Source: a virus (taxonomy: Duplodnaviria; Heunggongvirae; Uroviricota; Caudoviricetes). Taken from it: a stretch of 33,854 nucleotides of DNA. The stretch is from the IMG/VR virus record IMGVR_UViG_2654588006_000001; one strand, given 5' to 3'. This document shows, in pieces, positions 478 to 32,348 of the stretch (positions within the stretch are counted from its first letter, which is position 1; every line of letters starts with the position of its first letter). A program made the position numbers and the translations under genes. Below the pieces are notes generated by a model. It ran no database searches, was not told where the DNA came from, and saw only the letters and a list, made by a program, of their open reading frames with translations.

Positions 478-504
478 AAAAAATAAGCCCGTGTAAGGGA
501 GATT
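478..504. repeat. attL core: 27-bp direct repeat aaaaaataagcccgtgtaagggagatt
   Basis: Identical 27-mer at 32322..32348; flanking bases differ on both sides; int lies immediately inside. Matches the 27-bp P2 att core as I recall it. Confidence 0.9.
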
Positions 505-583
505 TAGGGTGTCACCAGTAGGGGCTTTCAACGGTACAATGCGGGTTTGAGCGGCATAAATTACCACTGAAAGCCCTTAAACG

Positions 584-1597
584 TTACTCTACTGTGGACA
601 CTGTGTGGACACTCTCGACCTCAGTACCACCTCTTAGCGGATTAAGAGAAATGGCGTCCTGAAGGTACTCTGGCGCAAAATGAGCGTAAACCATAGTTTG
701 CTCAATCCGCGTGTGACCTAGTATCCGTTGTAGCGTGATAATACTTCCTCCATTAATCATGAAATGAGTGGCAAAGCTGTGCCTTAGTGCATGTGTAGCT
801 TGCCCCATTGGCAAATCCGGTTTTATTGCTTTCATTGTTCGTCTGAAGCGAGGGTAATCAGCATCAGGGAATAAAAAACCTCGTTTGTTATCCGCGATCA
901 TTTTGGCAACAGCCTCTGAGATCGGGACGGTGCGTGGTTTGTTTGTTTTCGTTTTAACAAACGTGACGCGGTTATGGATGATATTTTCTGCTTTCAAACG
1001 AGCTGCTTCTCCCCAACGTGCTCCAGTACTCAGGCAAAGAATCGCAATCTTTTTGTTGTCGCCGTCAAGAGCAGCAAGCAGTAAGGCAATTTCTTCCTGC
1101 GTGAGATAGCCTGTGTCTGGTTTTTCCTCCTTAAGCCTTTTTGTCCCTCTGATAGGGTGCTCACCAAAGAATAACTCCGCTTCAATCAGGGCTGTAAACA
1201 TGCCGCTAATACATGTTAAATCACGATTGATACTCGAAGGTTTAATACCCTGACTTCTTCGGGTGGCGCAGTACTGGCTGATAAGCGATTTCGTAATTTG
1301 AAATGCGCATGGGTCATTCGTTATTTTTGTGAAGATTTCAATTTTCCCAAGATTAGATTTCCCATGCTCTTCGTGTTTACCCTTTAAATCCCACCAGATC
1401 TGTGTCAGCTCCGACAGACGTCGCTTGTCTGTTGGTTTTGATAGCCATTCTTTATTGTGGTGGTTGTACAACGTGTATTTCTCGAAAGCGACAGCTTCGC
1501 TTTTCTTATCAAACTTCCTACGGATGCGTTTTCCATTACGTCCAGTAGGGCGGATGTCCACTTCATATCGACCATCATCGAGTTTTTTGATTGCCAT
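584..1597 (-). CDS. int: Tyrosine integrase (P2 Int-like), 337 aa
   Basis: C-terminal catalytic region HALRHSFATHF…LGH…VYAH (R-H-R-Y tyrosine recombinase pattern); adjacent to attL; strong RBS ggaggg; length equals P2 Int as recalled. Confidence 0.95.
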   Translation of the reverse strand: MAIKKLDDGRYEVDIRPTGRNGKRIRRKFDKKSEAVAFEKYTLYNHHNKEWLSKPTDKRRLSELTQIWWDLKGKHEEHGKSNLGKIEIFTKITNDPCAFQITKSLISQYCATRRSQGIKPSSINRDLTCISGMFTALIEAELFFGEHPIRGTKRLKEEKPDTGYLTQEEIALLLAALDGDNKKIAILCLSTGARWGEAARLKAENIIHNRVTFVKTKTNKPRTVPISEAVAKMIADNKRGFLFPDADYPRFRRTMKAIKPDLPMGQATHALRHSFATHFMINGGSIITLQRILGHTRIEQTMVYAHFAPEYLQDAISLNPLRGGTEVESVHTVSTVE

Positions 1598-1712
1598 CAG
1601 AAAACCCTCCGAGTGGTGTGTTTTTTTGCGACTACTAATCGCTTTTTTCGTGGTGGCTGAAATTTAGCCACCAATAGTAGGCACTTGTGATGAATATATT
1701 CACGATGAATTG

Positions 1713-2012
1713 TTAACCAGTCTTTTGACCGGAGTGGGGCGACGTTGTTTCGTTTTGCCCAAAGTGTGCGAGAGCGGGCGCAATTTGCCCGGACTCAGGA
1801 GCGATCTGATTGGTCATGAACCATAAAGTGTATTTGGTGAATTGTGGGGTCTGCAGGATGTTCATCATGACATCTGTTGGAGGTGTTGAACGACCACTTT
1901 CATAGTAACTCAGCGTGCCATACGGAACCCCTGTTAAATCAGCAAGTTGTTGTCTGCTCAAATACTCTGATTTTCGCATTAAGACTATCTTCTCGCTTAT
2001 CGTGTTTGACAT
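1713..2012 (-). CDS. C: Immunity repressor C, 99 aa
   Basis: HTH-like segment LSRQQLADLTGVPYGTLSYYESG; divergent from cox; position and length as in P2. Confidence 0.9.
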   Translation of the reverse strand: MSNTISEKIVLMRKSEYLSRQQLADLTGVPYGTLSYYESGRSTPPTDVMMNILQTPQFTKYTLWFMTNQIAPESGQIAPALAHFGQNETTSPHSGQKTG

Positions 2013-2126
2013 GGTGTTTAGATCTCAATAGTATTTAGTTTAGATGTAGATTGTTTAGTGCTTGGATGTGGGCACTAAAAGGCATTATAAGACATTAAAC
2101 GCAATTCATGAGGGCTAGAGGACGAC
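2013..2126. promoter_or_regulatory. C/cox divergent immunity switch region (Pc/Pe) with direct repeats gtttagat (2016..2023, 2038..2045)
   Basis: Intergenic between divergent C and cox; two 8-bp direct repeats 22 bp apart read from sequence, consistent with the direct-repeat operator architecture recalled for P2 C. Exact promoter elements not mapped. Confidence 0.55.
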
Positions 2127-2402
2127 ATGAGCAAGCAAGTAACACTCATGACTGATGCGATTCCTTATCAGGAGTTCGCAAAACTAATAGGAAAATCGAC
2201 AGGAGCGGTTCGTCGGATGATCGATAAAGGAAAGCTGCCTGTAATTGATATGACCGATCCACAATCAGCTTCAGGTCGTGCAGGTGAATATTGGGTATAC
2301 CTTCCGGCATGGAATAACGGACTAAAACTGGCTTATGAAAGCCGCCCTAAAGAGATTCGTGACGGCTGGTTGATGTGGTTAGGTCTCGGTGAACCACGTT
2401 AA
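2127..2402 (+). CDS. cox: Cox excisionase/repressor, 91 aa
   Basis: Position immediately right of C, divergent; length equals P2 Cox as recalled; RBS gagg upstream. Confidence 0.88.
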   Translation: MSKQVTLMTDAIPYQEFAKLIGKSTGAVRRMIDKGKLPVIDMTDPQSASGRAGEYWVYLPAWNNGLKLAYESRPKEIRDGWLMWLGLGEPR

Positions 2403-2412
2403 GGAGAACCGT

Positions 2413-2583
2413 ATGAATGAGCCTCGTTGTATTGCTCAGTTACTGCGTAACGAAAGCCCCAGGGCGATTGACTTCACCATCACCCACGGTAAGGGGCGTA
2501 AGGGAATCATTATCCGCACCAAAAAACAGAGTCCGTTAAAAAAGGCTCTGACCTTTCTGAAAAGCCGGAGGGTATGGAAATGA
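2413..2583 (+). CDS. Small hypothetical protein (P2 orf78 position)
   Basis: ATG at 2413 preceded by aaggag RBS; the track ORF from 2389 probably starts here. Synteny only. Confidence 0.6.
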   Translation: MNEPRCIAQLLRNESPRAIDFTITHGKGRKGIIIRTKKQSPLKKALTFLKSRRVWK

Positions 2584-3080
2584 CAGTGATGACGCTCAAT
2601 CTCGTTGAAAAACAGCCAGCAGCTATGCGCCGGATAATTGGCAAGCATCTTGCCGTCCCTCGCTGGCAGGATACATGTGATTATTATAATCAGATGATGG
2701 AGCGCGAACGGCTAACGGTTTGCTTTCATGCACAGTTAAAACAGCGTCACGCAACGATGCGTTTTGAAGAAATGAACGACGTCGAACGTGAACGGCTGGT
2801 TTGTGCAATTGATGAATTGCGTGGGGCATTCTCAAAACGCCGTCAGGTCGGTGCAAGTGAGTATGCATATATTAGTTTTTTAACAGTCAGCCAGCGACGT
2901 ACTTTATTTATGCACGCACGACTGACAGAAAAAGAATTCAACCAGCCGTACTGGCGAATTAATGAAGAATCATGTTACTGGCGTGATGCTTTATTCCGTG
3001 CATTACGTGAATTATTCAGTCTGTTTGAGTATGCACCGACAATTCTGACGTCGGTAAAACCAGAGCAATATCTGCATTAA
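2580..3080 (+). CDS. B: Replication protein B (helicase-loader-like), ~166 aa
   Basis: Synteny (cox-orf78-B) and length; start chosen at second ATG (MTVM…) because the RBS spacing to 2574 is too short. Confidence 0.75.
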   Translation: MTVMTLNLVEKQPAAMRRIIGKHLAVPRWQDTCDYYNQMMERERLTVCFHAQLKQRHATMRFEEMNDVERERLVCAIDELRGAFSKRRQVGASEYAYISFLTVSQRRTLFMHARLTEKEFNQPYWRINEESCYWRDALFRALRELFSLFEYAPTILTSVKPEQYLH

Positions 3081-3143
3081 ATAATTAACCAGAGTTTTTA
3101 ACGCACTTAATCGTGCGGGGCTTCTTTTTGCCTGGAGAAAGTC

Positions 3144-3368
3144 ATGCATACAGTTTCTGAAAATCAGTGCGGTAAATACGCATTACTGCTGCAACAGGCC
3201 AGAACCGAAGCACAGGCCGACGCTGCGACGCGCTTTTCTTCTCATCTTGACGCCATGATTCGCCATATCACAAAGGCGGAGTTATCCCGCGTGGAGATAG
3301 TCGAGCTGCTCAGTCAGGAGTCGGAAAAATTTCACAATATCGGATTGTCTCGCGGGGAGGTGCTTTGA
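3144..3368 (+). CDS. Hypothetical early protein (P2 orf80 position)
   Basis: Synteny between B and A; 74 aa. Confidence 0.6.
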
Positions 3369-3670
3369 TGTCCTGTTCTCATTCAGTTGTATTACTGAAT
3401 AACGCCTTAAAAATCGCCGTTATGGAAAATGGTGATTTATCTCTTATTCAACTTTGTCTTGATAAAGAAAAACGCGACATAACTGAATCTGTTATCGCGA
3501 TTTATCAGAATGAATTAAACCTCCTGTCTGATGTGGTCAATTTACTTGTTAAACGCGCTGTATTCCACAAGCAAATTTCCTCCGTGGATGAACTGACAAA
3601 ATTAACGACAGAAATCGTCAGCTATTGCGCTGATGAATTTAAGAAACTGAACGACAAAAGGAACTGGTAA
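3365..3670 (+). CDS. Hypothetical early protein (P2 orf81 position)
   Basis: Synteny; start overlaps upstream stop (translational coupling). Confidence 0.6.
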
Positions 3671-3894
3671 TGCCGGACAACGTAGATTTCATTCAGGAAC
3701 AACAGGCTGAATTACTGGAGCGCCAGATTAACGCGGCAAGGGTAAAACATTGCGGTGTTTCTGCGCTGGTTTGCGAAGAGTGTGACGTGCCAATACCTGC
3801 TGCCCGTCGTGCGGCTTATCCGTCAGCCACGCGTTGTGTTTCCTGTCAGTCAGTCTTTGAAGCAAAAAACAAACATTACCGGAGAACGGCATGA
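3670..3894 (+). CDS. TraR/DksA-type C4 zinc-finger protein (P2 orf82 position)
   Basis: CxxC…CxxC pattern (CEECDV…CVSCQ) seen in translation; synteny. Confidence 0.7.
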   Translation: MPDNVDFIQEQQAELLERQINAARVKHCGVSALVCEECDVPIPAARRAAYPSATRCVSCQSVFEAKNKHYRRTA

Positions 3895-4166
3895 GTATTC
3901 GTATTGAAATTGGCGAACGTTATGTCGTTACCAGTGACAGCTTTCAGTTTATTCTCCACGAGAAAAAGAGAGCGGAAAGCGGTAAAAACGCCGGTCAGGA
4001 ATGGCTGTCGGTGGTTGGTTATTACCCGAAATTAAGCCAGCTCGTTTCCGGCATGATGCATCACGATATTCTGACCGGAAGCGCAAAGTCTTTTGCTGAT
4101 TTAAACGCGCAGGTTGAGCAACTCAGCAAGCGTTGTTCAGAGGCTTTTGGCTCATATGGCCGTTAA
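3891..4166 (+). CDS. Hypothetical early protein (P2 orf83 position)
   Basis: Synteny; 91 aa. Confidence 0.6.
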   Translation: MSIRIEIGERYVVTSDSFQFILHEKKRAESGKNAGQEWLSVVGYYPKLSQLVSGMMHHDILTGSAKSFADLNAQVEQLSKRCSEAFGSYGR

Positions 4167-6408
4167 AGCCTCCGGGCGTTTTGTCCCTCCATCAGCATTT
4201 GCCGCAGGCACCGGTAAGGCGTTTACCGGTGCTTATGCATGGAACGCGCCACGCGAGGCTGTCGGGCGCGAAAGACCCCTTACACGTGACGAGATGCGTC
4301 AGGTGCAAGGTGTTTTATCCACGATTAACCGCCTGCCTTACTTTTTGCGCTCGCTGTTTACTTCACGCTATGACTACATCCGGCGCAATAAAAGCCCGGT
4401 GCACGGGTTTTATTTCCTCACATCCACTTTTCAGCGTCGTTTATGGCCGCGCATTGAGCGCGTGAATCAGCGCCATGAAATGAACACCGACGCGTCGTTG
4501 CTGTTTCTGGCAGAGCGTGACCATTATGCGCGTCTGCCGGGGATGAATGACAAGGAACTGAAAAAGTTTGCCGCCCGTATCTCATCGCAGCTTTTCATGA
4601 TGTATGAGGAACTCTGCGATGCATGGGTTGATGCACATGGCGAGAAAGAATCGCTGTTTACGGATGAGGCTCAGGCGCATCTGTATGGTCATGTTGCTGG
4701 CGCTGCACGAGCTTTCAATATTTCCCCTCTCTACTGGAAAAAATACCGTAAAGGACAGATGACCACGAGGCAGGCATATTCTGCCATTGCCCGTCTGTTT
4801 AACGATGAGTGGTGGACTCATCAGCTTAAAGGTCAGCGTATGCGCTGGCATGAGGCGTTACTGATTGCTGTCGGGGAGGTGAATAAAGACCGTTCTCCTT
4901 ATGCCAGTAAACATGCCATTCGTGATGTGCGTGCGCGCCGCCAGGCAAATCTGGAATTTCTTAAATCGTGTGACCTTGAAAACAGGGAAACCGGCGAGCG
5001 CATCGACCTTATCAGTAAGGTGATGGGAAGTATTTCTAATCCTGAAATTCGCCGGATGGAGCTGATGAACACCATTGCCGGTATTGAGCGTTACGCCGCC
5101 GCAGAGGGTGATGTGGGGATGTTTATCACGCTGACCGCGCCGTCAAAGTATCACCCGACACGTCAGGTCGGAAAAGGCGAAAGTAAAACCGTCCAGCTAA
5201 ATCACGGCTGGAACGATGAGGCATTTAATCCAAAGGATGCGCAGCGTTATCTCTGCCGCATCTGGAGCCTGATGCGCACGGCATTCAAGGATAATGATTT
5301 ACAGGTCTACGGTTTGCGTGTCGTCGAGCCACACCACGACGGAACGCCGCACTGGCATATGATGCTTTTTTGTAATCCACGTCAGCGTAACCAGATTATC
5401 GAAACCATGCGTCGCTACGCGCTCAAAGAGGATGGCGACGAAAGAGGAGCCGAGCGAAACCGTTTTCAGGCGAAACACCTTAACCGGGGCGGTGCTGCGG
5501 GGTATATCGCGAAATACATTTCAAAAAATATCGACGGCTATGCACTGGATGGTCAGCTCGATAACGATACCGGCAGACCTCTGAAAGATACTGCCGCGGC
5601 TGTTACTGCATGGGCGTCAACGTGGCGCATCCCGCAATTTAAAACGGTTGGTCTGCCGACAATGGGGGCTTACCGTGAACTACGCAAATTGCCTCGCGGC
5701 GTCAGCATTGCTGATGAGTTTGACGAACGCGTCGAGGCTGCACGCGCTGCCGCAGACAGTGGCGATTTTGCGTTGTATATCAGTGCGCAGGGTGGGGCAA
5801 ATGTTCCGCGCGATTGCCAGACTGTCAGAGTCGCCCGTAGCCCGTCGGATGAAGTTAACGAGTACGAGGAAGAAGTCGAGAGAGTGGTCGGCATTTACGC
5901 GCCGCATCTCGGCGCGCGTCATATTCATATCACCAGAACGACGGACTGGCGCATTGTTCCGAAAGTTCCGGTCGTGGAGCCTTTAACTTTAAAAAGCGGC
6001 ATCGCCGCGCCTCGGAGTCCTGTCAATAACTGTGGAAAGCTTACCGGTGGTGATTCTCCGGTTATGACCCCCACACCGTCTGAGCAAGCCACAGCTGTGT
6101 TAAATCTGATTGATAAAGGAGTGATTGGTTGGGATGAGCCGGATGTTATAAAGGTGCTTAACGGCGCGTTAAACGCTGGTGCGCCTCAAAAAAGCAGCCA
6201 ACAAAGAAATGCAGCATCGCTCAAACCTGCTGAACAGACGCCATCAGCCAGGCTTACCAAAGCGGAGAGGGAGCGGATACCAAAAATTCGATTTGATTTG
6301 GTTCAGAAAGATATTGTTCCTGAGTGGTGGGAGCTTGAGGTTCTTGCTCGGGGAGCGAAAGTGCATTTTGGATATAAAGTATTCAAATATCACAATAATG
6401 ATAAATAG
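4156..6408 (+). CDS. A: Rolling-circle replication initiator gpA (HUH endonuclease)
   Basis: HUH motif (…EPHHDGTPHWHMMLF…) and paired tyrosines (GYIAKYISK) in translation; synteny. Start uncertain: the track ORF begins at 4114, 4156 (MAVKASGRF) minimises overlap with the upstream gene. Confidence 0.9.
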   Translation: MAVKASGRFVPPSAFAAGTGKAFTGAYAWNAPREAVGRERPLTRDEMRQVQGVLSTINRLPYFLRSLFTSRYDYIRRNKSPVHGFYFLTSTFQRRLWPRIERVNQRHEMNTDASLLFLAERDHYARLPGMNDKELKKFAARISSQLFMMYEELCDAWVDAHGEKESLFTDEAQAHLYGHVAGAARAFNISPLYWKKYRKGQMTTRQAYSAIARLFNDEWWTHQLKGQRMRWHEALLIAVGEVNKDRSPYASKHAIRDVRARRQANLEFLKSCDLENRETGERIDLISKVMGSISNPEIRRMELMNTIAGIERYAAAEGDVGMFITLTAPSKYHPTRQVGKGESKTVQLNHGWNDEAFNPKDAQRYLCRIWSLMRTAFKDNDLQVYGLRVVEPHHDGTPHWHMMLFCNPRQRNQIIETMRRYALKEDGDERGAERNRFQAKHLNRGGAAGYIAKYISKNIDGYALDGQLDNDTGRPLKDTAAAVTAWASTWRIPQFKTVGLPTMGAYRELRKLPRGVSIADEFDERVEAARAAADSGDFALYISAQGGANVPRDCQTVRVARSPSDEVNEYEEEVERVVGIYAPHLGARHIHITRTTDWRIVPKVPVVEPLTLKSGIAAPRSPVNNCGKLTGGDSPVMTPTPSEQATAVLNLIDKGVIGWDEPDVIKVLNGALNAGAPQKSSQQRNAASLKPAEQTPSARLTKAERERIPKIRFDLVQKDIVPEWWELEVLARGAKVHFGYKVFKYHNNDK

Positions 6409-6499
6409 GGGTGTGATTTCACTTCTTGTAAGTAGTAACATCAGAAGATTCCGATTACCGTTTGTCTTATTAGTTGCGTTTAAAAAGAGGTATTTTTAG

Positions 6500-7972
6500 A
6501 TGGTTGAAAATTTGAGTGAGATTAGAACATCGACCGTGACTGCATTGTTAGAGAAGGTAAGGCAGAATAATTATGGGAAGTATCTGTTAAAAGCTAAAAT
6601 TGGGCGAATTCGCGGATTTTCGGGAGAAGATATTACTTTTGAATTTCCTGTTACAGCCTTGGTTGGTCCTAATGGTAGTGGAAAATCCTCTGTTCTCGGC
6701 GTTGCAGGATGTGCCTATAAAGAAATTAAGCCTAGCGTTTTCTTTCCCAAAAGTGCAATTGGTGATGAAAGCATGGCGGGGTGGAAAGTTGAATATGATA
6801 TAATTGATAAAGTTATTAATCCTCGACAAACAGTTCGCAGAACTAGTAGTTTTAGAAGCGCTAAATGGGCGAGAGATGAAGTATTATCTAGAGATGTATA
6901 TTTCTTTGGTATCGAACGGACTGTCCCTGCTGGCGAGAAGACAAAGTACAAAAAGTTAACCCGTTCCTCTTACCAACATACAGGCAGTTTATCAACGTTG
7001 AGTGCAAATGTCGCAAAACAAATAGAACATATTTTGGGCAAGGATGTGTCTGCTTTTAATGTGACAGATATTGGCCATGATGAAAAGTTTTTTGTAGGCA
7101 ATAATAATGGTAGCCGTTATTCTGAATTCCATTTTGGTGCGGGTGAGTCATCAATTATAAGAATGGTTTCTGAGATAGAGAATGCATCTGATAACAGTTT
7201 GGTTCTTATTGAAGAAATTGAAAATGGGCTGCATCCGGTAGCAACGAGACGAATGGTCGAATATCTAATTGATGTTGCCAGTCGTAAATCAATTCAGGCT
7301 GTTTTTACCACACATAGTGATTATGCCCTGATGCCATTACCACAGGAAGCAATATGGGCATGTATTGATGGACGTCTTAGAAAAGGACGGTTAACTGTTG
7401 AATCTTTAAGGGCTATATCTGGTAGGGTTGACAAAAAATTAGCTATCTTTGTTGAGGATGAGTTTGCTAAATGCTGGGTTGATACTATTCTTCGGGAAAG
7501 ATTAGGTAGTGATTATGATCAATTAGAAGTACATGCCGTCGCTGGCGATGGAAATGCTGTATCTATTCATAAGTCACACAAGGCAAATCCTTCAATTAAA
7601 TTTAAATCGCTTTGTATTATTGACGGAGATTCTTCACAAGAAGATAGTGATGAAAATGGTGTCTTTAGATTGCCGGGGACTCAACCTGAACGTAGTGTAT
7701 TCGATGACATACTTGTGAAAATTGATAATATATTGGCAATACTTACTGTTTCTTGCCAACTGCCTCCAGAATCTCAAGGTAAAGTGAGAACAGTGGTTGA
7801 ATCTGTTTCAAGAACGAATCGAGATCCCCATCTTATTTTTAATCAAATAGGCATGGAATTAGGCTTCATTTCAGAAGTGATTATTCGGGGTGCATTTTTA
7901 AGCCTTTGGGCAAGGCAAAATGAAGATTATTGTAGTGATTTAGTAAACAAAGTTAAGGCCCTTCTGGATTGA
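6500..7972 (+). CDS. ABC-type ATPase with C-terminal Toprim-like domain (OLD-family-like), 490 aa; candidate defence cargo
   Basis: Walker A GPNGSGKSS; Walker B/D-loop LVLIEEIENGLHP; H-loop FTTHS; C-terminal acidic motifs IFVEDE and IIDGDS resembling Toprim E and DxD; aagagg RBS; visibly AT-rich; occupies the slot between A and cos. Confidence 0.75.
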   Translation: MVENLSEIRTSTVTALLEKVRQNNYGKYLLKAKIGRIRGFSGEDITFEFPVTALVGPNGSGKSSVLGVAGCAYKEIKPSVFFPKSAIGDESMAGWKVEYDIIDKVINPRQTVRRTSSFRSAKWARDEVLSRDVYFFGIERTVPAGEKTKYKKLTRSSYQHTGSLSTLSANVAKQIEHILGKDVSAFNVTDIGHDEKFFVGNNNGSRYSEFHFGAGESSIIRMVSEIENASDNSLVLIEEIENGLHPVATRRMVEYLIDVASRKSIQAVFTTHSDYALMPLPQEAIWACIDGRLRKGRLTVESLRAISGRVDKKLAIFVEDEFAKCWVDTILRERLGSDYDQLEVHAVAGDGNAVSIHKSHKANPSIKFKSLCIIDGDSSQEDSDENGVFRLPGTQPERSVFDDILVKIDNILAILTVSCQLPPESQGKVRTVVESVSRTNRDPHLIFNQIGMELGFISEVIIRGAFLSLWARQNEDYCSDLVNKVKALLD

Positions 7973-7987
7973 TTAGCACTTTGTGGA

Positions 7988-8020
7988 GATCTGGAGGATT
8001 TTCTCCAGATCTTATTATTT
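7988..8020 (+). terminator. Rho-independent terminator after the ATPase cargo gene
   Basis: 9-bp stem gatctggag / ctccagatc, loop gatttt, followed by T-rich tract ttattattt. Confidence 0.7.
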
Positions 8021-8149
8021 GAGTCATGTATTACTAGGTTGCATCTATTTGCATTTGTTTTTGATGTCATTCTGTACCTTTTTTGTCAGGCCTGACGTGG
8101 TTTCAGATTACTGAGGCACTTGCATCAAAACCGCCCCATGAAGCGGGCG

Positions 8150-8168
8150 GGCGAGGCGGGGAAAGCAC
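8150..8168. other. cos cohesive-end site (ggcgaggcggggaaagcac)
   Basis: Exact match to the 19-nt P2 cohesive end as I recall it; located between the cargo gene and Q, as expected in a prophage. Confidence 0.8.
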
Positions 8169-13304: not shown

Positions 13305-13307
13305 CCG

Positions 13308-23101: not shown

Positions 23102-23104
23102 TTT

Positions 23105-23632: not shown

Positions 23633-23971
23633 GTTGTATGATCTCTGGTGTGAGCTTACATATCTATAGCACAGAGTAAAGCCTAATCTGACAGTCCGCT
23701 ATGTGCCAAAAGCGGACATAACGACACGTTAGTTAGAAATCTCAAGACCAATTAGGTTGGATACTTACATGTATACTATTGCCTAACGATACTACCCTAT
23801 CAACCTCATGGTTTATAGGCGGGGGTGAGAGCCAATCGAACGCTATCGTACGTTTTTATGCTGTCTACCCTAGACCCCAAGTAGACATGAATCTTACCTG
23901 ATTTCCATACGAGGGCGACGTTGATCATCCAGCTTTAGTGCGAGCACTGAACTTAACATTTACCAGCAATA

Positions 23972-25018
23972 GTGATATTTTCTACAAAGAAAAATATATG
24001 GAATAACGTCATCGCGGGTACAAAAATGACTATAAAAAAAACATATGTAACACCAACAGAAATAGTGAAATATTTTTATGACAAACCGGAAAACGATAAC
24101 GTAAAAGAGAGAAAAACAATTGAGAGCCTGACCCGTCTCAAACCTGAGTGGGAAAATACTCTCGATATGATGAAGTTAATACGCAATTGTGAAAAGCTAG
24201 CAACTGAAGGTATTTTAATGGAATTATCTTCAGGACATACTCTTTTGGACCGTTGCTATTTCGCACCGAATTTCAATGAATCAGATGCGAAATATGGAAA
24301 GTATGATTTTATAGCTGATGGATTTGAGTCAATCATAGACCGCCTTAGTCCTTCCGTTTTACCTGTTGTTGTTGAAAAAAGTGATGGTTCACATGATCTT
24401 GGTACTAGTTTTATTGTTGGGAATAACCACACGATATTTACAGCCAGACATGTTATTGAAGACATGAAGAGTATCAGGATACTTAGAGCTGGTGGTGAGG
24501 CTTTACCAATACATAAAATCTTTGTATCTAACGATGAACGTATTGATATCGCTTTAGTTTTCACAACCATTCCGAATGAAGATAATATTCAACCACTTAA
24601 GGTCTCAACCAAAGCCTCGGTACTGGATGAAATTTTATCAATAGGATTTCCACCCATTCCAGGATTTGATGCATTAAAGTTATATGACGTTTCGCATATA
24701 AATTCGTTTGTCCGACTGTCAAAGGGGCGAATTGTTGGTTCTGGTCACTCTTACTTAGATTCACAAGACTTTTTATTATTCAATGCTAGGGTTAAGGGGG
24801 GGAATAGCGGTGGCCCTATAATTAACAAATACGGCTTTGTTATTGGTATGCTTGTACAAATACCAATATCATCTGAGGACAGTTCAAAGATTGATAACCT
24901 TGGATATGGTATAGCTGTAACAGGAAAAAGCCTGCTGGATGCTATTACATTTACAGAAAATGGCCGCGAATTAACACTCACCGACCGAGGAAATGGAGAA
25001 TATTCAACTCTAGCATAA
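23972..25018 (+). CDS. Cytoplasmic trypsin/HtrA-like serine peptidase with ~135-aa unknown N-terminal domain, 348 aa; candidate defence cargo
   Basis: Catalytic-triad motifs in order: GTSFIVGNNHTIFTARHV (His), DIALVF (Asp), GGNSGGPII (Ser); no signal peptide or TM; visibly AT-rich; in the G/FI slot. Start may be GTG 23972 or ATG 24026. Confidence 0.8.
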   Translation: MIFSTKKNIWNNVIAGTKMTIKKTYVTPTEIVKYFYDKPENDNVKERKTIESLTRLKPEWENTLDMMKLIRNCEKLATEGILMELSSGHTLLDRCYFAPNFNESDAKYGKYDFIADGFESIIDRLSPSVLPVVVEKSDGSHDLGTSFIVGNNHTIFTARHVIEDMKSIRILRAGGEALPIHKIFVSNDERIDIALVFTTIPNEDNIQPLKVSTKASVLDEILSIGFPPIPGFDALKLYDVSHINSFVRLSKGRIVGSGHSYLDSQDFLLFNARVKGGNSGGPIINKYGFVIGMLVQIPISSEDSSKIDNLGYGIAVTGKSLLDAITFTENGRELTLTDRGNGEYSTLA

Positions 25019-25496
25019 ATGATATTATTAATTAAGTTGTACTAACTCAGTTTAAATGAATCAAGCATCCCCGTAACTTTGCCTGAAAAGGCTCATCGAG
25101 GGATGCACATTGTACGGATGTGTGAAAACTAAATCGGCTTTGTCACTTGGATTCGAGGGGAAAACTGAACTGAAAGCGATAAAAACGTCTAAAAAATCGT
25201 TTCGCAGACAGATGCACCCGATTCAAGCCATTTTGAGGATGGCTTTCTGCCTTTTATATTTATATTAATCATAAGGTTATTCCATTGGTGTACGATATCG
25301 TGCTTTGCCCCTCATCTCCCAGATAACTAATTAGCCTTAAAATTACTCATGTGTTTCTGCCGGTTAAAATTATATGGTTTTCATTTACAATAGTCTCAAG
25401 TCCGCTCTTCGCTCAAAGCAGACTGTCAGATTTGATAGCGTTTTGGCTATGTAAATTGTCAGTCGGGAAATAAGTGAGTACAAATCATGACAGGCG

Positions 25497-25520
25497 GGCG
25501 GATTGTCCGCCTTTTCTTTA
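25497..25520 (+). terminator. Rho-independent terminator upstream of FI
   Basis: GC-rich 6-bp stem ggcgga / tccgcc, loop ttg, followed by ttttcttta. Confidence 0.55.
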
Positions 25521-25616
25521 TCTGTTGTTTCATCCACTGACCAGCCAGGTCAAATAGCGTCTCATGCTCTGCACAACAGAAAATACCACTCACCCATTAA
25601 CCACGGAGTTAGACGG

Positions 25617-26807
25617 ATGAGTGACTATCATCACGGCGTGCAGGTGCTGGAGATTAACGACGGCACCCGCGTCATTTCCACCGTATCCACGGCCATTGTC
25701 GGCATGGTCTGCACGGCCAGCGATGCGGATGCGGAAACCTTCCCCCTCAATAAACCGGTGCTGATTACCAACGTGCAGAGCGCAATTGCAAAGGCCGGTA
25801 AAAAAGGCACGCTGGCGGCGTCGTTGCAGGCCATCGCTGACCAGTCAAAACCGGTCACCGTTGTCGTGCGCGTGGAAGACGGCAACGGCGATGACGAAGA
25901 AACGAAACTTGCGCAGACCGTTTCCAATATCATCGGCACCACCGACGAAAACGGTCAGTACACCGGACTGAAAGCCCTGCTGGCGGCGGAGTCGGTAACC
26001 GGTGTTAAACCGCGTATTCTCGGTGTGCCGGGACTGGACACCAAAGAGGTTGCCGTCGCACTGGCATCAGTCTGTCAGAAGCTGCGCGCTTTCGGGTATA
26101 TCAGCGCATGGGGCTGTAAGACCATTTCCGAGGTGAAAGCCTACCGCCAGAATTTCAGCCAGCGTGAGCTGATGGTCATCTGGCCGGATTTCCTCGCATG
26201 GGATACGGTCGCCAGTACCACCGCTACCGCGTATGCCACCGCCCGTGCGCTGGGTCTGCGCGCTAAAATCGACCAGGAGCAGGGCTGGCATAAAACGCTG
26301 TCCAACGTCGGGGTGAACGGTGTTACCGGCATCAGCGCGTCCGTATTCTGGGATTTGCAGGAGTCCGGCACCGATGCTGACCTGCTTAACGAGTCAGGCG
26401 TCACAACGCTGATTCGCCGTGACGGTTTCCGCTTCTGGGGTAACCGTACCTGCTCTGATGACCCGCTGTTCCTCTTTGAAAACTACACCCGCACCGCGCA
26501 GGTGCTGGCCGACACGATGGCTGAGGCGCACATGTGGGCGGTGGACAAGCCCATCACCGCAACGCTGATTCGCGACATCGTTGACGGCATCAATGCCAAA
26601 TTCCGTGAGCTGAAAACAAACGGCTATATCGTGGATGCGACCTGCTGGTTCAGCGAAGAATCCAACGATGCGGAAACCCTCAAGGCCGGAAAACTGTATA
26701 TCGACTACGACTATACACCGGTGCCTCCTCTTGAAAACCTGACCCTGCGCCAGCGTATTACCGATAAATACCTGGCAAATCTGGTCACCTCGGTTAACAG
26801 CAATTAA
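25617..26807 (+). CDS. FI: Tail sheath protein gpFI, 396 aa
   Basis: Start at MSDYHHGVQVLEI (internal ATG of the track ORF); 396 aa; synteny. Confidence 0.92.
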   Translation: MSDYHHGVQVLEINDGTRVISTVSTAIVGMVCTASDADAETFPLNKPVLITNVQSAIAKAGKKGTLAASLQAIADQSKPVTVVVRVEDGNGDDEETKLAQTVSNIIGTTDENGQYTGLKALLAAESVTGVKPRILGVPGLDTKEVAVALASVCQKLRAFGYISAWGCKTISEVKAYRQNFSQRELMVIWPDFLAWDTVASTTATAYATARALGLRAKIDQEQGWHKTLSNVGVNGVTGISASVFWDLQESGTDADLLNESGVTTLIRRDGFRFWGNRTCSDDPLFLFENYTRTAQVLADTMAEAHMWAVDKPITATLIRDIVDGINAKFRELKTNGYIVDATCWFSEESNDAETLKAGKLYIDYDYTPVPPLENLTLRQRITDKYLANLVTSVNSN

Positions 26808-26819
26808 GGAGCCTGACCG

Positions 26820-27338
26820 ATGGCAATGCCGCGCAAACTCAAGTTAATGAACGTCTTTCTGAACGGCTACAGCTATCAGGGCGTCGCGAAGTCCGTCACG
26901 CTGCCAAAACTGACCCGTAAGCTCGAAAACTATCGCGGTGCGGGGATGAACGGCAGCGCACCGGTAGACCTCGGCCTTGATGACGATGCGCTGTCAATGG
27001 AGTGGTCGCTCGGGGGCTTCCCGGATTCGGTTATCTGGGAGCTTTACGCCGCAACCGGTGTGGATGCTGTGCCGATTCGTTTTGCAGGCTCTTACCAGCG
27101 TGACGATACCGGCGAAACGGTGGCCGTCGAAGTGGTCATGCGTGGACGTCAGAAAGAAATCGACACCGGCGAGGGTAAACAGGGAGAAGACACCGAGTCG
27201 AAAATCTCCGTGGTCTGCACCTATTTCCGGCTGACGATGGACGGTAAGGAGCTGGTCGAAATCGACACCATCAACATGATTGAGAAGGTGAACGGCGTCG
27301 ACCGGCTGGAGCAACACCGCCGCAATATCGGCCTGTGA
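26820..27338 (+). CDS. FII: Tail tube protein gpFII, 172 aa
   Basis: Synteny and length. Confidence 0.9.
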   Translation: MAMPRKLKLMNVFLNGYSYQGVAKSVTLPKLTRKLENYRGAGMNGSAPVDLGLDDDALSMEWSLGGFPDSVIWELYAATGVDAVPIRFAGSYQRDDTGETVAVEVVMRGRQKEIDTGEGKQGEDTESKISVVCTYFRLTMDGKELVEIDTINMIEKVNGVDRLEQHRRNIGL

Positions 27339-27394
27339 TTTTCATCCGGTCAGCCAGGCTGACCGGTTAACCCTGATTCAGAAGTGAGAAAACC

Positions 27395-27670
27395 ATGAAC
27401 AAAGAAAATGTGATTACCCTGGACAATCCGGTCAAGCGTGGTGAGCAGGTTATCGAACAGGTCACGCTGATGAAACCCAGTGCCGGGACGCTGCGCGGTG
27501 TCAGTCTGGCAGCGGTCGCGAACTCCGAAGTCGATGCACTGATTAAGGTGCTGCCGCGCATGACGGCACCGATGCTGACCGAGCAGGAGGTCGCCGCACT
27601 GGAACTGCCTGACCTTGTGGCGCTGGCCGGTAAGGTGGTCGGTTTTTTGTCGCCGAACTCGGTGCAGTGA
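27395..27670 (+). CDS. E: Tail assembly chaperone gpE, 91 aa
   Basis: Synteny before tape measure; length. Confidence 0.88.
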   Translation: MNKENVITLDNPVKRGEQVIEQVTLMKPSAGTLRGVSLAAVANSEVDALIKVLPRMTAPMLTEQEVAALELPDLVALAGKVVGFLSPNSVQ

Positions 27671-27822
27671 CGTTTCCGAAAAATCTCTCGGTCGATGACC
27701 TGATGGCGGATGTGGCAGTGATATTTCACTGGCCGCCATCAGAACTGTATCCCATGAGCCTGACCGAACTCATCACATGGCGCGAAAAGGCGCTCCGGCG
27801 AAGCGGAAACACGAATGAGTAA
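27395..27822 (+). CDS. E': gpE+E' (-1 programmed frameshift product, ~142 aa)
   Basis: Slippery run ggTTTTTTG at 27641..27649; the -1 frame stays open to TAA at 27820..27822, overlapping the T start; total length matches the 142 aa recalled for P2 E+E'. Confidence 0.75.
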
Positions 27823-30262
27823 CAATGTAAAATTACAGGTATTGCTCAGGGCTGTTGACCAGGCATCCCGCCCGTTTAAATCCATCCGCACAGCGAGCAA
27901 GTCGCTGTCGGGGGATATCCGGGAAACACAAAAATCACTGCGCGAGCTGAACGGTCACGCATCCCGTATTGAGGGATTCCGCAAGACCAGCGCACAGCTC
28001 GCCGTGACTGGTCATGCACTTGAAAAGGCACGGCAGGAGGCCGAAGCCCTTGCCACACAGTTTAAAAACACCGAGCGTCCGACCCGTGCTCAGGCGAAAG
28101 TGCTGGAATCCGCAAAGCGTGCGGCGGAGGACTTACAGGCGAAATATAACCGCCTGACGGATTCCGTTAAACGCCAGCAGCGGGAACTGGCCGCTGTGGG
28201 AATTAATACCCGCAATCTTGCACATGATGAGCAGGGACTGAAAAACCGTATCAGTGAAACCACCGCACAGCTTAACCGTCAGCGCGACGCGCTGGCGCGT
28301 GTCAGTGCGCAACAGGCAAAACTTAATGCAGTAAAACAGCGTTATCAGGCCGGAAAGGAACTGGCCGGAAATATGGCCTCAGTAGGCGCTGCCGGTGTGG
28401 GGATTGCGGCGGCGGGAACGATGGCCGGAGTTAAGTTGCTGATGCCCGGATATGAGTTTGCGCAGAAAAACTCAGAATTGCAGGCTGTGCTCGGTGTGGC
28501 AAAAGACTCCGCCGAAATGGCTGCACTACGCAAGCAGGCGCGCCAGCTCGGTGACAACACCGCCGCCTCAGCGGATGATGCGGCCGGTGCGCAGATTATC
28601 ATTGCGAAAGCGGGTGGGGATGTTGATGCCATTCAGGCGGCAACGCCGGTCACGCTGAATATGGCGCTGGCGAACCGTCGCACGATGGAAGAAAACGCCG
28701 CCCTGCTGATGGGGATGAAATCTGCCTTTCAGCTTTCAAACGATAAGGTCGCTCATATCGGGGATGTTCTCTCCATGACGATGAACAAAACCGCCGCTGA
28801 TTTTGACGGCATGAGCGATGCGCTGACCTATGCCGCACCAGTGGCAAAAAATGCCGGTGTCAGCATTGAAGAAACTGCCGCAATGGTCGGGGCGCTGCAT
28901 GATGCAAAAATCACAGGCTCAATGGCGGGGACGGGAAGCCGTGCCGTGTTAAGTCGCCTGCAGGCACCGACTGGAAAAGCATGGGATGCACTCAAAGAGC
29001 TTGGCGTGAAAACCTCAGACAGTAAGGGAAACACCCGACCAGTATTTACCATTCTGAAAGAAATGCAGGCCAGCTTTGAGAAAAACCGGCTCGGTACTGC
29101 CCAGCAGGCCGAATACATGAAAACCATTTTCGGGGAGGAGGCCAGCTCAGCCGCCGCTGTGCTGATGACTGCCGCGTCAACCGGAAAGCTGGACAAACTG
29201 ACCGCTGCGTTTAAAGCCTCAGACGGGAAGACCGCAGAGCTGGTAAATATCATGCAGGACAACCTCGGCGGTGACTTTAAGGAGTTTCAGTCCGCTTATG
29301 AGGCGGTGGGGACAGACCTGTTTGACCAGCAGGAAGGCGCACTGCGTAAGCTCACGCAGACGGCCACAAAGTATGTGTTAAAACTCGACGGCTGGATCCA
29401 GAAAAACAAATCACTGGCGTCAACCATCGGCCTCATTGTCGGTGGTGCACTGGCGCTGACTGCTGTCATCGGTGCCATTGGCCTCGTAGCCTGGCCGGTT
29501 ATCACTGGCATCAATGCCATCATCGCGGCAGCAGGCGCAATGGGGGCAATCTTCACGACGGTTGGCAGTGCTGTTATGACGGCCATCGGGGCGATTAGCT
29601 GGCCGGTTGTGGCCGTGGTGGCCGCCATTGTCGCCGGGGCGTTACTTATCCATAAATACTGGGAGCCTGTCAGCGCATTCTTTGGCGGTGTGGTGGAAGG
29701 GCTGAAAGCGGCATTTGCGCCGGTGGGAGAACTGTTCACGCCACTGAAGCCGGTGTTTGACTGGCTGGGCGAAAAGTTACAGGCCGCGTGGCAGTGGTTT
29801 AAAAACCTGATTGCCCCGGTCAAAGCCACACAGGACACCCTGAACCGTTGCCGTGACACGGGCGTCATGTTCGGGCAGGCACTGGCTGACGCGCTGATGC
29901 TGCCGCTTAATGCGTTCAACAAACTGCGCAGCGGTATTGACTGGGTACTGGAAAAACTCGGTGTTATCAACAAAGAGTCAGACACACTTGACCAGACCGC
30001 AGCCAGAACTCATGCCGCCACGTATGGCACCGGTGGTTATATTCCGGCGACCAGCTCTTATGCAGGCTATCAGGCTTATCAGCCGGTTACGGCACCGGCT
30101 GGCCGCTCTTATGTGGACCAGAGTAAAAACGAATATCACATCAACCTGACGGGCGGTACTGCGCCGGGAACACAGCTTGACCGCCAGTTACAGGATGCGC
30201 TCGAAAAATACGAGCGGGATAAACGTGCGCGCGCCCGTGCCAGCATGATGCATGACGGTTAA
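27815..30262 (+). CDS. T: Tail tape measure protein gpT, 815 aa
   Basis: Long Ala/Gly-rich protein with hydrophobic central segment; synteny and length. Confidence 0.92.
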   Translation: MSNNVKLQVLLRAVDQASRPFKSIRTASKSLSGDIRETQKSLRELNGHASRIEGFRKTSAQLAVTGHALEKARQEAEALATQFKNTERPTRAQAKVLESAKRAAEDLQAKYNRLTDSVKRQQRELAAVGINTRNLAHDEQGLKNRISETTAQLNRQRDALARVSAQQAKLNAVKQRYQAGKELAGNMASVGAAGVGIAAAGTMAGVKLLMPGYEFAQKNSELQAVLGVAKDSAEMAALRKQARQLGDNTAASADDAAGAQIIIAKAGGDVDAIQAATPVTLNMALANRRTMEENAALLMGMKSAFQLSNDKVAHIGDVLSMTMNKTAADFDGMSDALTYAAPVAKNAGVSIEETAAMVGALHDAKITGSMAGTGSRAVLSRLQAPTGKAWDALKELGVKTSDSKGNTRPVFTILKEMQASFEKNRLGTAQQAEYMKTIFGEEASSAAAVLMTAASTGKLDKLTAAFKASDGKTAELVNIMQDNLGGDFKEFQSAYEAVGTDLFDQQEGALRKLTQTATKYVLKLDGWIQKNKSLASTIGLIVGGALALTAVIGAIGLVAWPVITGINAIIAAAGAMGAIFTTVGSAVMTAIGAISWPVVAVVAAIVAGALLIHKYWEPVSAFFGGVVEGLKAAFAPVGELFTPLKPVFDWLGEKLQAAWQWFKNLIAPVKATQDTLNRCRDTGVMFGQALADALMLPLNAFNKLRSGIDWVLEKLGVINKESDTLDQTAARTHAATYGTGGYIPATSSYAGYQAYQPVTAPAGRSYVDQSKNEYHINLTGGTAPGTQLDRQLQDALEKYERDKRARARASMMHDG

Positions 30263-30276
30263 GGAGGTGACGAAAA

Positions 30277-30756
30277 ATGATGCTCGCGTTAGGTATGTTT
30301 GTTTTTATGCGCCAGACGCTGCCACACCAGACCATGCAGCGTGAATCAGATTATCGCTGGCCGTCAAATTCCCGTATCGGTAAACGGGATGCCTTTCAGT
30401 TTCTCGGTGTGGGTGAGGAAAACATGACGCTTGCCGGTGTGCTTTATCCCGAACTGACCGGCGGCAAGCTGACGATGACCACGCTCAGACTGATGGCAGA
30501 GGAAGGCCGGGCGTGGCCGTTGCTGGATGGCACCGGCATGATTTACGGCATGTATGTCATCAGCAGGGTGAGTGAAACAGGGAGTATTTTCTTTGCAGAC
30601 GGCACACCCCGGAAAATTGATTTTACGCTGTCGCTCACCCGCGTTGATGAATCACTGGCCGCGCTTTATGGCGATATCGGTAAACAGGCGGAATCGCTCA
30701 TCGGTAAGGCTGGCAGTATGGCGACCAGATTCACGGGTATGACGGGGGCGGGATAA
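30277..30756 (+). CDS. U: Tail protein gpU, 159 aa
   Basis: Synteny and length. Confidence 0.88.
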   Translation: MMLALGMFVFMRQTLPHQTMQRESDYRWPSNSRIGKRDAFQFLGVGEENMTLAGVLYPELTGGKLTMTTLRLMAEEGRAWPLLDGTGMIYGMYVISRVSETGSIFFADGTPRKIDFTLSLTRVDESLAALYGDIGKQAESLIGKAGSMATRFTGMTGAG

Positions 30757-31919
30757 TGCTGGATGCGCTGACATTTGATGCAGGCAGTACGCTGACGCCG
30801 GATTACATGCTGATGCTCGACAGCAGGGATATTACCGGCAATATCAGTGACCGTCTGATGAGCATGACCCTGACGGATAACCGGGGCTTTGAGGCTGACC
30901 AGCTTGATATTGAACTGAACGATGCCGACGGGCAGGTCGGGCTGCCGGTTCGTGGCGCTGTCCTGACGGTGTATATCGGCTGGAAAGGTTTTGCCCTGGT
31001 ATGCAAAGGGAAATTTACCGTTGATGAGGTTGAACACCGGGGCGCACCGGATGTGGTCACCATCCGCGCCCGGAGTGCAGATTTCCGCGGGACGCTCAAT
31101 TCCCGCCGGGAAGGCTCCTGGCATGACACCACGCTCGGTGCGATTGTTGAGGCGATAGCCTCCCGTAACAGGCTGGAAGCCAGTGTCGCTCCGTCACTGG
31201 CCGGAATTAAAATCCCGCACATCGACCAGTCGCAGGAGTCTGATGCGAAATTCCTGACCCGTCTTGCAGAACGCAACGGCGGTGAGGTGTCGGTAAAAAT
31301 GGGAAAACTGTTGTTTCTCAAAGCGGGGCAGGGGGTGACGGCCAGCGGTAAAAAAATCCCGCAGGTCACCATCACCCGCAGCGACGGCGACCGCCATCAT
31401 TTTGCGATTGCTGACCGTGGAGCCTATACCGGCGTAACGGCAAAGTGGTTACACACCAAAGACCCGAAACCACAAAAGCAGAAGGTAAAACTGAAACGCA
31501 AAAAGAAAGAAAAACACCTGCGCGCACTGGAGCACCCGAAAGCGAAACCGGTCACGCAGAAGAAAGCGCCAAAAGTACCGGAAGCGCGCGAAGGTGAATA
31601 CATGGCCGGTGAGGCTGACAACGTTTTTGCCCTGACTACGGTATATGCCACGAAAGCGCAGGCCATGCGCGCCGCTCAGGCGAAGTGGGATAAACTGCAA
31701 CGGGGTGTGGCGGAGTTCTCCATCAGCCTGGCTACCGGTCGGGCAGATATTTACACGGAAACACCGGTTAAAGTGTCAGGCTTTAAGCGCGTCATAGACG
31801 AGCAGGACTGGACAATCACTAAGGTGACACATTTTCTGAATAATAGCGGCTTCACGACGTCCCTGGAGCTTGAGGTCAGGCTTTCTGATGTGGAGTACGA
31901 AACAGAAGATGATGAGTGA
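30756..31919 (+). CDS. D: Tail protein gpD, 387 aa
   Basis: Synteny and length. Confidence 0.88.
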   Translation: MLDALTFDAGSTLTPDYMLMLDSRDITGNISDRLMSMTLTDNRGFEADQLDIELNDADGQVGLPVRGAVLTVYIGWKGFALVCKGKFTVDEVEHRGAPDVVTIRARSADFRGTLNSRREGSWHDTTLGAIVEAIASRNRLEASVAPSLAGIKIPHIDQSQESDAKFLTRLAERNGGEVSVKMGKLLFLKAGQGVTASGKKIPQVTITRSDGDRHHFAIADRGAYTGVTAKWLHTKDPKPQKQKVKLKRKKKEKHLRALEHPKAKPVTQKKAPKVPEAREGEYMAGEADNVFALTTVYATKAQAMRAAQAKWDKLQRGVAEFSISLATGRADIYTETPVKVSGFKRVIDEQDWTITKVTHFLNNSGFTTSLELEVRLSDVEYETEDDE

Positions 31920-32000
31920 TGTTTTTGTTTTATCTGTTTGTTTTATAAGGATAAATTAACTAAAATGGCACCATCAACAAAACCGGAAGAGGTGCTCGCG

Positions 32001-32219
32001 ATGTTTCATTGTCCTTTATGCCAGCATGCCGCACATGCGCGTACAAGTCGCTATATCACTGACACGACAAAAGAGCGTTATCACCAGTGTCAGAACGTGA
32101 ATTGCAGCGCCACGTTCATCACTTATGAGTCGGTACAGCGATACATCGTGAAGCCGGGAGAAGTCCACGCCGTAAGGCCGCACCCGTTGCCGTCAGGGCA
32201 GCAAATTATGTGGATGTAA
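32001..32219 (+). CDS. ogr: Late-gene transcription activator Ogr (C4 zinc finger), 72 aa
   Basis: MFHCPLCQHAAHARTSRYI…CQNVNC… with four Cys; last gene before the att repeat; start taken at internal ATG. Confidence 0.9.
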   Translation: MFHCPLCQHAAHARTSRYITDTTKERYHQCQNVNCSATFITYESVQRYIVKPGEVHAVRPHPLPSGQQIMWM

Positions 32220-32230
32220 TTAGAAACAGG

Positions 32231-32257
32231 AAGCCCCTCAGTCGAGGGGCTTTTTTT
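32231..32257 (+). terminator. Rho-independent terminator after ogr
   Basis: Stem aagcccctc / gaggggctt, loop agtc, followed by seven T. Confidence 0.85.
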
Positions 32258-32321
32258 GTCGATGTGGTCAATGTGTGGACGTGACCAGAAATAAATCCTT
32301 TTATTTCAATTTGTTGTACGT

Positions 32322-32348
32322 AAAAAATAAGCCCGTGTAAGGGAGATT
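32322..32348. repeat. attR core: 27-bp direct repeat
   Basis: Identical to 478..504; overlaps the 3' end of cyaR. Confidence 0.9.

Follow-up and report, generated by a model that had tools for sequence, protein, structure and literature searches.

A probably intact P2-type prophage of Escherichia coli with accessory genes in the three moron regions and a non-inducible immunity type

Whether a P2-like element in a bacterial chromosome is still a working phage, and whether the AT-rich genes that it carries serve anti-phage defence, are the questions raised by a 33,854-nt stretch of viral DNA (IMG/VR record IMGVR_UViG_2654588006_000001; the whole of this stretch is referred to below as the window). 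The element in question is a prophage of the genus Peduovirus, inserted in an Escherichia coli chromosome and occupying nearly the entire window (Table 1). An earlier note on this DNA had described it as a complete and potentially inducible phage with a defence payload in three variable slots. The analysis reported here, in which bacteriophage P2 (NC_001895/AF063097) served as the reference, points with good confidence to an intact P2-type prophage that carries accessory cargo in the three classical moron regions and belongs to a non-inducible immunity type.

At the nucleotide level, megablast returned 97.1% identity to P2 over 81% of the query, and the alignment falls into four blastn blocks that are collinear with the P2 genome. 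When all 42 annotated P2 proteins were used as tblastn queries, 38 were matched in the P2 order and without a single interruption, at 91–100% amino acid identity. The matches are full length except for those of H (N-terminal 251 residues only) and A (745 of 761 residues). C, Cox, Orf78, Ogr, S, K, Y, E and FII are 100% identical to their P2 counterparts, and most of the other proteins share 97–99.8% of their residues with P2; M lacks "PE", two residues in a Pro/Lys-rich linker, as the result of an in-frame loss. The same search gave no match in the window for orf91, tin, old or fun(Z), all four of which are known non-essential morons. No stops or frameshifts were found in about 26 kb of coding sequence. 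For 34 equal-length gene pairs, the Nei–Gojobori method counted 434 synonymous and 113 non-synonymous differences from P2 (ratio of non-synonymous to synonymous rates, dN/dS, 0.076), which indicates that the genes have been kept under selection and do not belong to a decaying remnant. The first 25 kb of the window are 99.6% identical to a region of the RefSeq-annotated avian pathogenic E. coli (APEC) strain E123, where the annotation gives the same genes. At 31.84 kb, the excised genome would fall within the size range of deposited P2-like phages (29.2–34.8 kb).

The ends of the prophage were located with the P2 attP core (AAAAAATAAGCCCGTGTAAGGGAGATT), which occurs exactly twice in the window, as the attL and attR cores, against a chance expectation of 0; the span proposed in the earlier note matches the outer ends of both 27-bp cores exactly. 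The insertion point lies at the 3' end of the small RNA gene cyaR, between yegR and trhP/yegQ. The att core is the cyaR terminator, and the gene overlaps the attR core; thus, the attR of the prophage rebuilds the cyaR 3' end. As an empty-site test, the left flank, one core and the right flank were joined in silico (607 nt) and compared with 5426 complete E. coli genomes, the collection to which the E. coli genome counts below refer. The joined flanks are identical to the empty site of strain WCHEC020031 in a single piece (607/607, 100%), and at least 80% of the query is covered in 4563 of the genomes, while in K-12 the two halves are separated by the known ogrK/D' remnant. Since the joined flanks match an empty site throughout, precise excision would restore a common, natural attB. 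Immediately to the left of attL (431–477), a degenerate P2 Int P arm can be recognised, in which TCGATGTGGTCAATG matches at 15/15 positions and is followed by scattered matches and a gap of about 15 bp. This degenerate arm is also found at the "empty" attB sites of other strains, which suggests that the common empty site is what remains of the attR of an earlier P2-like prophage. In strain E123, a ParE/RelE–ParD toxin–antitoxin pair (43957–44551) lies directly downstream of trhP/yegQ, past the right end of the window and close beside the attachment site.

Cis-acting sites were compared one by one with the annotated features of P2, and nearly all of them proved identical or almost identical (Table 1). 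At cos, homology to P2 and to virion-isolated P2-like phages restarts at about 8115–8122, roughly 30 bp before the 19-mer of the cohesive ends, which is the same boundary as in P2. The four mismatches in the ori region are all at least 28 nt from the nick site, and the core of ±28 nt is identical. Ogr sites of the TGT-N12-ACA type precede the four late operons; those of pP/pO and pV are 100% identical to P2, whereas pF differs. From its Ogr-site region to near the FI start, pF is identical to that of L-413C, and this allele is common to Wphi, L-413C and P2_AC1, which leaves P2 as the odd one out. As all three of these phages form plaques, the divergent pF was not retained as a promoter defect. 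Taken together with the gene content, the perfect cos 19-mer, the full-length int, the invariant Ogr and the two perfect att cores bear out the earlier description of cos, int/att and ogr as intact, of the essential genes as full length and of the element as a phage that has not decayed.

The same description had placed all non-P2-like content at A/cos, S/V and G/FI, and in this respect it requires revision. The gene between S and V is orf30 of P2 itself and lies inside a block that is 97.6% identical to P2, while three divergent segments had been overlooked: the last ~115 codons of A, the receptor-binding part of H (21604–22903), and G (85.6% nucleotide and 90.9% amino acid identity). Judged from the alignments, the actual non-P2 segments are the A 3' end with the TO region, the H/G tail-fibre module and the Z/fun region. 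In H, the N-terminal 251 residues are 96% identical to P2 and the remainder has been replaced; the receptor-binding part is unrelated to that of P2 and has its closest match, at 95.7% identity, in Peduovirus P22H4 and phage 9W. The gene also contains a 132-bp tandem repeat (3.3 copies with 92% matches, 21425–21864) that encodes a 44-residue unit (…SSATNS.SETLAATPKAVK.AYDLANGKYTAQDATTARKGLVQL…). Because the H/G module has been swapped, the host range of this phage probably differs from that of P2. Divergence within the P2-like blocks is mosaic as well: C, cox and orf78 (1713–2583) show 0 differences from P2, the flanking core genes differ by 2–3%, and their proportion of synonymous differences (pS) is about 0.09. 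In orf30, five of 786 nucleotides differ from P2, four of them non-synonymously (pS 0.006). This pattern suggests a recent recombinational exchange of the C–cox–orf78 and orf30 modules.

Compositionally, the note was right that each slot holds a distinct gene. Against 51.4% G+C for the prophage, the TO-region island (6174–8120), orf30 and the Z/fun island (23718–25400) have 38.8%, 33.6% and 37.6%, respectively. Comparison across related prophages, which had been proposed as a check, demonstrated that cargo is swapped between otherwise near-identical prophages at A–Q, S–V and G–FI. Of the supposed defence payload, on the other hand, only part stood: the TO-region gene belongs to a validated family (HEC-04), while Orf30 is a protein without an assigned function and the Z/fun gene, encoding an S1 peptidase, is a candidate only. 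The combination of these three genes was found in two complete E. coli genomes, those of APEC E123 and of the enterotoxigenic E. coli (ETEC) strain ETEC4090, so that the same prophage resides in unrelated hosts from a chicken in Korea and a pig in Belgium. No mention of the combination was found in the searchable literature on P2 hotspots. In ETEC4090 (NZ_CP122620, 2986–12455), the sister prophage carries the same three cargo genes at the same site, and its int is in two pseudogene halves as two IS1 copies flank an inverted gatZ–yegR segment; in contrast to the prophage of the window, the ETEC4090 copy is grounded. An apparent location of the ETEC4090 prophage at another site was rejected for the same reason.

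The TO-region gene, which replaces orf91, tin and old, encodes a 490-residue protein that matches the PADLOC HEC-04 model (PDLC04149; E-value, 4.6e-225) with residues 6–489 against profile positions 4–489 of 494. Its Pfam matches are AAA_21, AAA_15 and an SMC_N-type ABC-ATPase, and the Walker-A K62 and the TOPRIM residues E319, D375 and D377 are found at the published HEC-04 numbering. HEC-04 has been described as a single-protein ABC-ATPase–TOPRIM defence that lowers the plaquing of several coliphages, with T4 and T5 used in the published plaquing test; mutants K62A and E319A/D375A/D377A are inactive, and over-expression is apparently toxic (bioRxiv 10.1101/2024.01.29.577857). A homologue whose phenotype resembles abortive infection, ibfA, has been reported from a plasmid (PMC12111858). 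By profile and catalytic residues, the TO-region gene is the only cargo gene of this prophage in an experimentally validated defence family. The search for relatives among OLD-family proteins yielded no tblastn match for P2 Old, and PDB chain 6p74 matched only over a 42-residue ATPase stretch (E-value, 6.5e-5). The HEC-04 gene together with the same A 3' end was found in 10 of the 5426 genomes, always between A and Q; A itself is near-identical to P2 up to about residue 633 and about 60% identical over its last ~115 residues, an allele that travels with the HEC-04 cargo. A validated-family gene on a probably mobile P2 genome represents one way in which such genes could spread.

In P2, old, tin and fun(Z) run antisense to the adjacent genes. 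In the window, the HEC-04 gene follows A in the direction of the early operon, and the protease gene follows G in that of the V operon. A consensus scan found no terminator-like site between A and HEC-04 (6408–6500) or between G and the protease gene (23633–24026), and lytic transcripts may therefore read into both cargo genes.

The protein encoded by orf30 has hydrophobic segments at residues 4–31, 106–132 and 219–241, and its own PHROG (phrog_2407), which spans it at full length, was the sole library match, with no match in PADLOC, Pfam or NCBIfam. The gene is present in 458 of 1570 E. coli genomes having the S–V junction, and most of the other sampled junctions are empty.

In the Z/fun slot (23633–25616), the peptidase gene is the only sense open reading frame of at least 60 codons. 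Its start was placed at position 24026 because both the full-length match to phrog_18002 and the RefSeq annotation give 330 residues. The product matches Pfam Trypsin_2 (E-value, 2.9e-17), and H142, D174 and S261 are invariant in 49 homologues with identities down to 27%. These come from Pseudomonas, Nitrospina, Bacteroidota and metagenomes; the family spans Proteobacteria, Nitrospinota and Bacteroidota. An AlphaFold2 model (mean predicted local distance difference test score, pLDDT, 86.7) was compared with the PDB by Foldseek; the best folds were the protease domains of DegP, DegQ and DegS (DegQ/DegP E-value, ~1e-13), and only the protease domain was recognised, the N-terminal domain of ~110 residues remaining unmatched. 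Pfam identified no PDZ domain, and the protein ends about 30 residues past the protease domain. No export signal or membrane anchor was found, as there is no hydrophobic N-terminus and the highest 19-residue hydropathy is 1.22. The PADLOC matches (retron-XI, Lamassu and Hachiman variants) cover the protease domain only (133–299), and no PADLOC v2 model matches the protein as a whole. Seven genomic contexts of homologues were inspected. Three have defence-type neighbours (HEPN_AbiU2 with DUF4238; a reverse transcriptase with an SNF2 helicase; CHAT/kinase/SMC-like genes), and no partner gene is conserved across the seven. The protease gene occupies the Z/fun slot in 40 of the 5426 E. coli genomes. 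Two candidate identifications were discarded. The weak CTD12 (ABC-3C) match (E-value, 0.0039) is below the family threshold and falls within the 18 residues that precede the most likely start, and the "Peptidase + TM" system of Rousset et al. (pFR104) involves an ImmA/IrrE-type HEXXH metallopeptidase of the A–Q hotspot.

On this evidence, the candidate protease probably acts in defence, as an effector that carries its own sensor domain. It is proposed more tentatively that it founds an undescribed single-gene anti-phage system, in which infection would be sensed by the N-terminal domain and then aborted by the trypsin-fold protease that this domain releases. There is, however, an appreciable chance, though short of even, that Orf30, the S1 peptidase or both are not anti-phage genes at all and serve other lysogenic conversion (envelope, host fitness, virulence) or functions that benefit the phage. 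Neither protein as a whole fits a PADLOC model, no domain is recognisable in the membrane protein Orf30, some protease homologues stand among housekeeping genes, and P2 hotspots are known to hold non-defence cargo as well, such as cytolethal distending toxin and partition systems (PMC9122126). For the protease, several observations argue the other way. The Z/fun slot of other P2 prophages holds Shedu, restriction or HNH nucleases, defence-type neighbours recur in the contexts mentioned above, and the combination of cytoplasmic location, invariant triad and extra N-terminal domain resembles the protease effectors of retron-XI, Lamassu and Hachiman. A compact protease candidate and the orf30 gene are both available for defence screens.

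As all genes and sites of the pathway are present and essentially identical to those of P2, the prophage is most likely able to excise and to form infectious particles. Int-mediated recombination between attP and an attB overlapping the cyaR terminator would have inserted the phage. With the P2 C repressor expressed from Pc along with int, Pe would be shut in the lysogen, and the single-gene HEC-04 ABC-ATPase–TOPRIM protein of the TO region would provide a nuclease-type defence. The lytic switch would follow when C is displaced (Cox wins) or inactivated (by the epsilon protein of satellite P4), whereupon A would nick ori, Ogr would turn on the four late operons and the terminase would cut at cos.

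Several points weigh against an intact phage with defence-type cargo. Intact genes are no proof of plaque formation, and the A C-terminus, the two-residue deletion in M and the mosaic H fibre are alleles known from sequence alone. Neither the HEC-04 nor the protease cargo occurs in any of 50,697 deposited phage genomes, and therefore this exact load has not been seen in virions. The HEC-04 gene, of a kind reported as apparently toxic on over-expression, follows A directly, and no terminator-like site separates the two. Two of the seven protease contexts are of the housekeeping kind, and the case for defence roles of Orf30 and the protease draws solely on position and neighbourhood. Some of these points would fit a cryptic element, in which a missense change, the variant A C-terminus or a misfit H/G fibre blocks growth despite intact open reading frames, and which persists as a vertically inherited defence island. 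The absence of both cargo alleles from deposited phages, their rarity among E. coli genomes and the grounding of the ETEC4090 sister copy by an IS1 inversion through int are all consistent with this. Such an explanation is nevertheless improbable in view of the low dN/dS, the uninterrupted coding sequence and the conservation of all cis sites. The variant pF and H segments are, moreover, common to plaque-forming phages, and the same prophage is found in unrelated hosts.

The intact P2-type prophage has the immunity system of P2 itself. The C repressor and Cox are 100% identical to those of P2, and the direct-repeat operators O1 and O2 between the face-to-face promoters Pe and Pc are likewise unchanged. 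Every early open reading frame maps to a P2 gene; hence, there is neither a large CI repressor of the 186 type nor a LexA-controlled Tum antirepressor among them, and no extra open reading frame was found near ogr/att. P2-like phages with P2 C are not inducible by ultraviolet (UV) light, as RecA does not trigger self-cleavage of C (PMC1904268), while the epsilon protein of satellite P4 derepresses P2 (PMC9942202). Based on P2 biology, the prophage is expected to be of the non-UV/SOS-inducible immunity type and, given that its repressor is P2 C, not to respond to DNA damage; its expected release would be rare and spontaneous, or would follow satellite-triggered derepression. The "potentially inducible" label of the earlier note is accordingly best dropped, and induction in the usual sense, by SOS or DNA damage, is highly improbable: two of the four P2-like phages recovered from supernatants of natural E. 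coli isolates did come from mitomycin-C-treated cultures, but the other two came from uninduced ones and the necessity of the drug was not shown there (PMC9122126), whereas the 99-residue repressor and its operators are those of a phage in which RecA does not bring about cleavage of C, and they are accompanied by neither a 186-type CI nor a tum-like antirepressor. For recovery of the phage, mitomycin C or UV would be unreliable, and spontaneous release or P4 epsilon should be used instead.

Table 1. Coordinates of the prophage, its genes and sites, the flanking chromosome and the blocks aligned with P2 (positions in the window; aa, amino acids; nt, nucleotides).
Feature	Position	Strand	Remarks
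yegR	1-318		Left chromosomal flank
Prophage, P2 type (Peduovirus)	478-32348		31.87 kb; E. coli chromosome
attL core, 27 bp	478-504	+	Exact match to P2 attP core 24356-24382
Cox-binding sites and Int P' arm of attL	521-617	+	74/74 and 26/27 identical to P2
int, tyrosine integrase, 337 aa	584-1597	-	Full length, 99.4% aa identity
C, immunity repressor, 99 aa	1713-2012	-	100% identical to P2 C, aa and nt
Pe/Pc switch, operators O1 and O2	2006-2109		104/104 identical to P2 25884-25987
Early operon cox (2127-2402), orf78, B (2580-3080), orf80-orf83	2127-4166	+	Full length, 92-100% aa identity
A, replication endonuclease, 750 aa (P2: 761)	4156-6408	+	92% identity over 745 aa
ori	Nick region about 5974-6054		Within A; 77/81 identical
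HEC-04-type ABC ATPase-TOPRIM protein, 490 aa	6500-7972	+	G+C 38.3%; replaces orf91/tin/old
Terminator-like hairpin after HEC-04 gene	7986-8013	+	12-pair stem, consensus scan only
cos region	8121-8168		19-nt cohesive-end sequence 8150-8168, 19/19 identical to P2 cosL/cosR
tQ terminator			22/22 identical to P2
Q, portal (8338-9372), and P, terminase ATPase (9372-11144)	8338-11144	-	Full length; 98.8% and 99.8% aa identity
Divergent late promoters pP/pO	11145-11317		Ogr site 11208-11238; 173/173 identical
O-operon attenuator			19/19 identical to P2
O operon: O, N, M (245 aa), L, X, Y, K, lysA, lysB, lysC, R, S	11318-17512	+	Full length, 94-100% aa identity
tO terminator			37/37 identical to P2
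orf30 of P2, 261 aa	17584-18369	-	Three predicted transmembrane segments; 98.5% aa, 99.4% nt identity
pV late promoter, orf30-V intergenic	18370-18452		Ogr site 18384-18411; 83/83 identical
Baseplate V, W, J, I	18453-20868	+	Full length, 97.6-99.4% aa identity
Tail fibre H, 740 aa (P2: 669), and assembly protein G, 175 aa	20879-23632	+	H mosaic
HtrA-like cytoplasmic trypsin-fold serine protease, 330 aa, predicted	24026-25018	+	In AT-rich segment 23718-25400
pF late promoter region	25524-25616		Differs from P2
F operon: FI, FII, E, E+E', T, U, D	25617-31919	+	Full length, 98.2-100% aa identity
E/E' slippery region	Near 27650		41/41 identical
ogr promoter and terminator			29/30 and 23/24 identical to P2
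ogr, late-gene activator, 72 aa	32001-32219	+	100% aa identity
attR	32259-32348	+	Int P arm 32259-32286 (28/28 identical to P2), IHF site 32290-32323 (33/34), core 32322-32348 (27/27)
cyaR, host small RNA gene	32325-32410	-	Rfam RF00112, 100.7 bits vs gathering score 47
trhP/yegQ	32493-33854	-	Right chromosomal flank
blastn block 1	478-6173		P2 24356-30051; 97.3%; att core to most of A
blastn block 2	8121/8150-21603		P2 cos to 13458; 97.6%; Q through start of H; 13.4 kb
blastn block 3	22904-23717		P2 14546-15358; 85.6%; end of H, G
blastn block 4	25401-32348		P2 17433-24382; 96.8%; pF through ogr to att core

The prophage is an ordinary example of a well-described pattern, and the window itself changes little. 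Swappable defence genes at TO, orf30 and Z/fun in P2 relatives have already been published and surveyed in thousands of genomes.

Among the cargo, the HEC-04 gene product fits its family by the full-length PADLOC model match and the same residue numbers, the likeness being known by profile and residues only. The copy in the window lies in the TO region of a P2-type phage; the published HEC-04 was found inside an Hma system, and IbfA is encoded on a plasmid. P2 Old and the OLD-family nucleases have the same ABC ATPase–TOPRIM architecture, with the sequence match limited to the short ATPase stretch given above. The protease shares the trypsin fold and the His-Asp-Ser triad with HtrA, DegP and DegS (S1C) and differs from them in having no PDZ domain, signal peptide or anchor, in its unrelated N-terminal domain of ~110 residues and in being phage-borne. 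In retron type XI and in the Lamassu- and Hachiman-protease systems, a reverse transcriptase, SMC-like or helicase partner is fused or adjacent, while the protease of the window lacks such a partner.

As a whole, the element shares with P2 the gene order, att core, cos, ori, C/Cox immunity, Ogr-dependent late promoters and orf30. The aligned DNA is 96.8–97.6% identical to that of P2. The element differs in that the genome is 1.7 kb shorter and the end of A diverges. One HEC-04 gene, on the opposite strand to old/tin, takes the place of orf91, tin and old, and the S1 peptidase gene, on the opposite strand to fun(Z), that of fun(Z). The receptor-binding part of H is replaced and has two extra 44-residue repeats, P2 having fewer copies, and pF is the Wphi/L-413C allele. 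The three P2 moron regions (PMC6823313) and the defence hotspots of P2-like prophages have been described before (Rousset et al. 2022, PMC9122126; Moura de Sousa et al. 2026, PMC13586616; bioRxiv 10.1101/2024.10.15.618418), and the cargo of this prophage lies at exactly the A–Q (TO), S–V (orf30) and G–FI (Z/fun) positions reported there and is likewise AT-rich.

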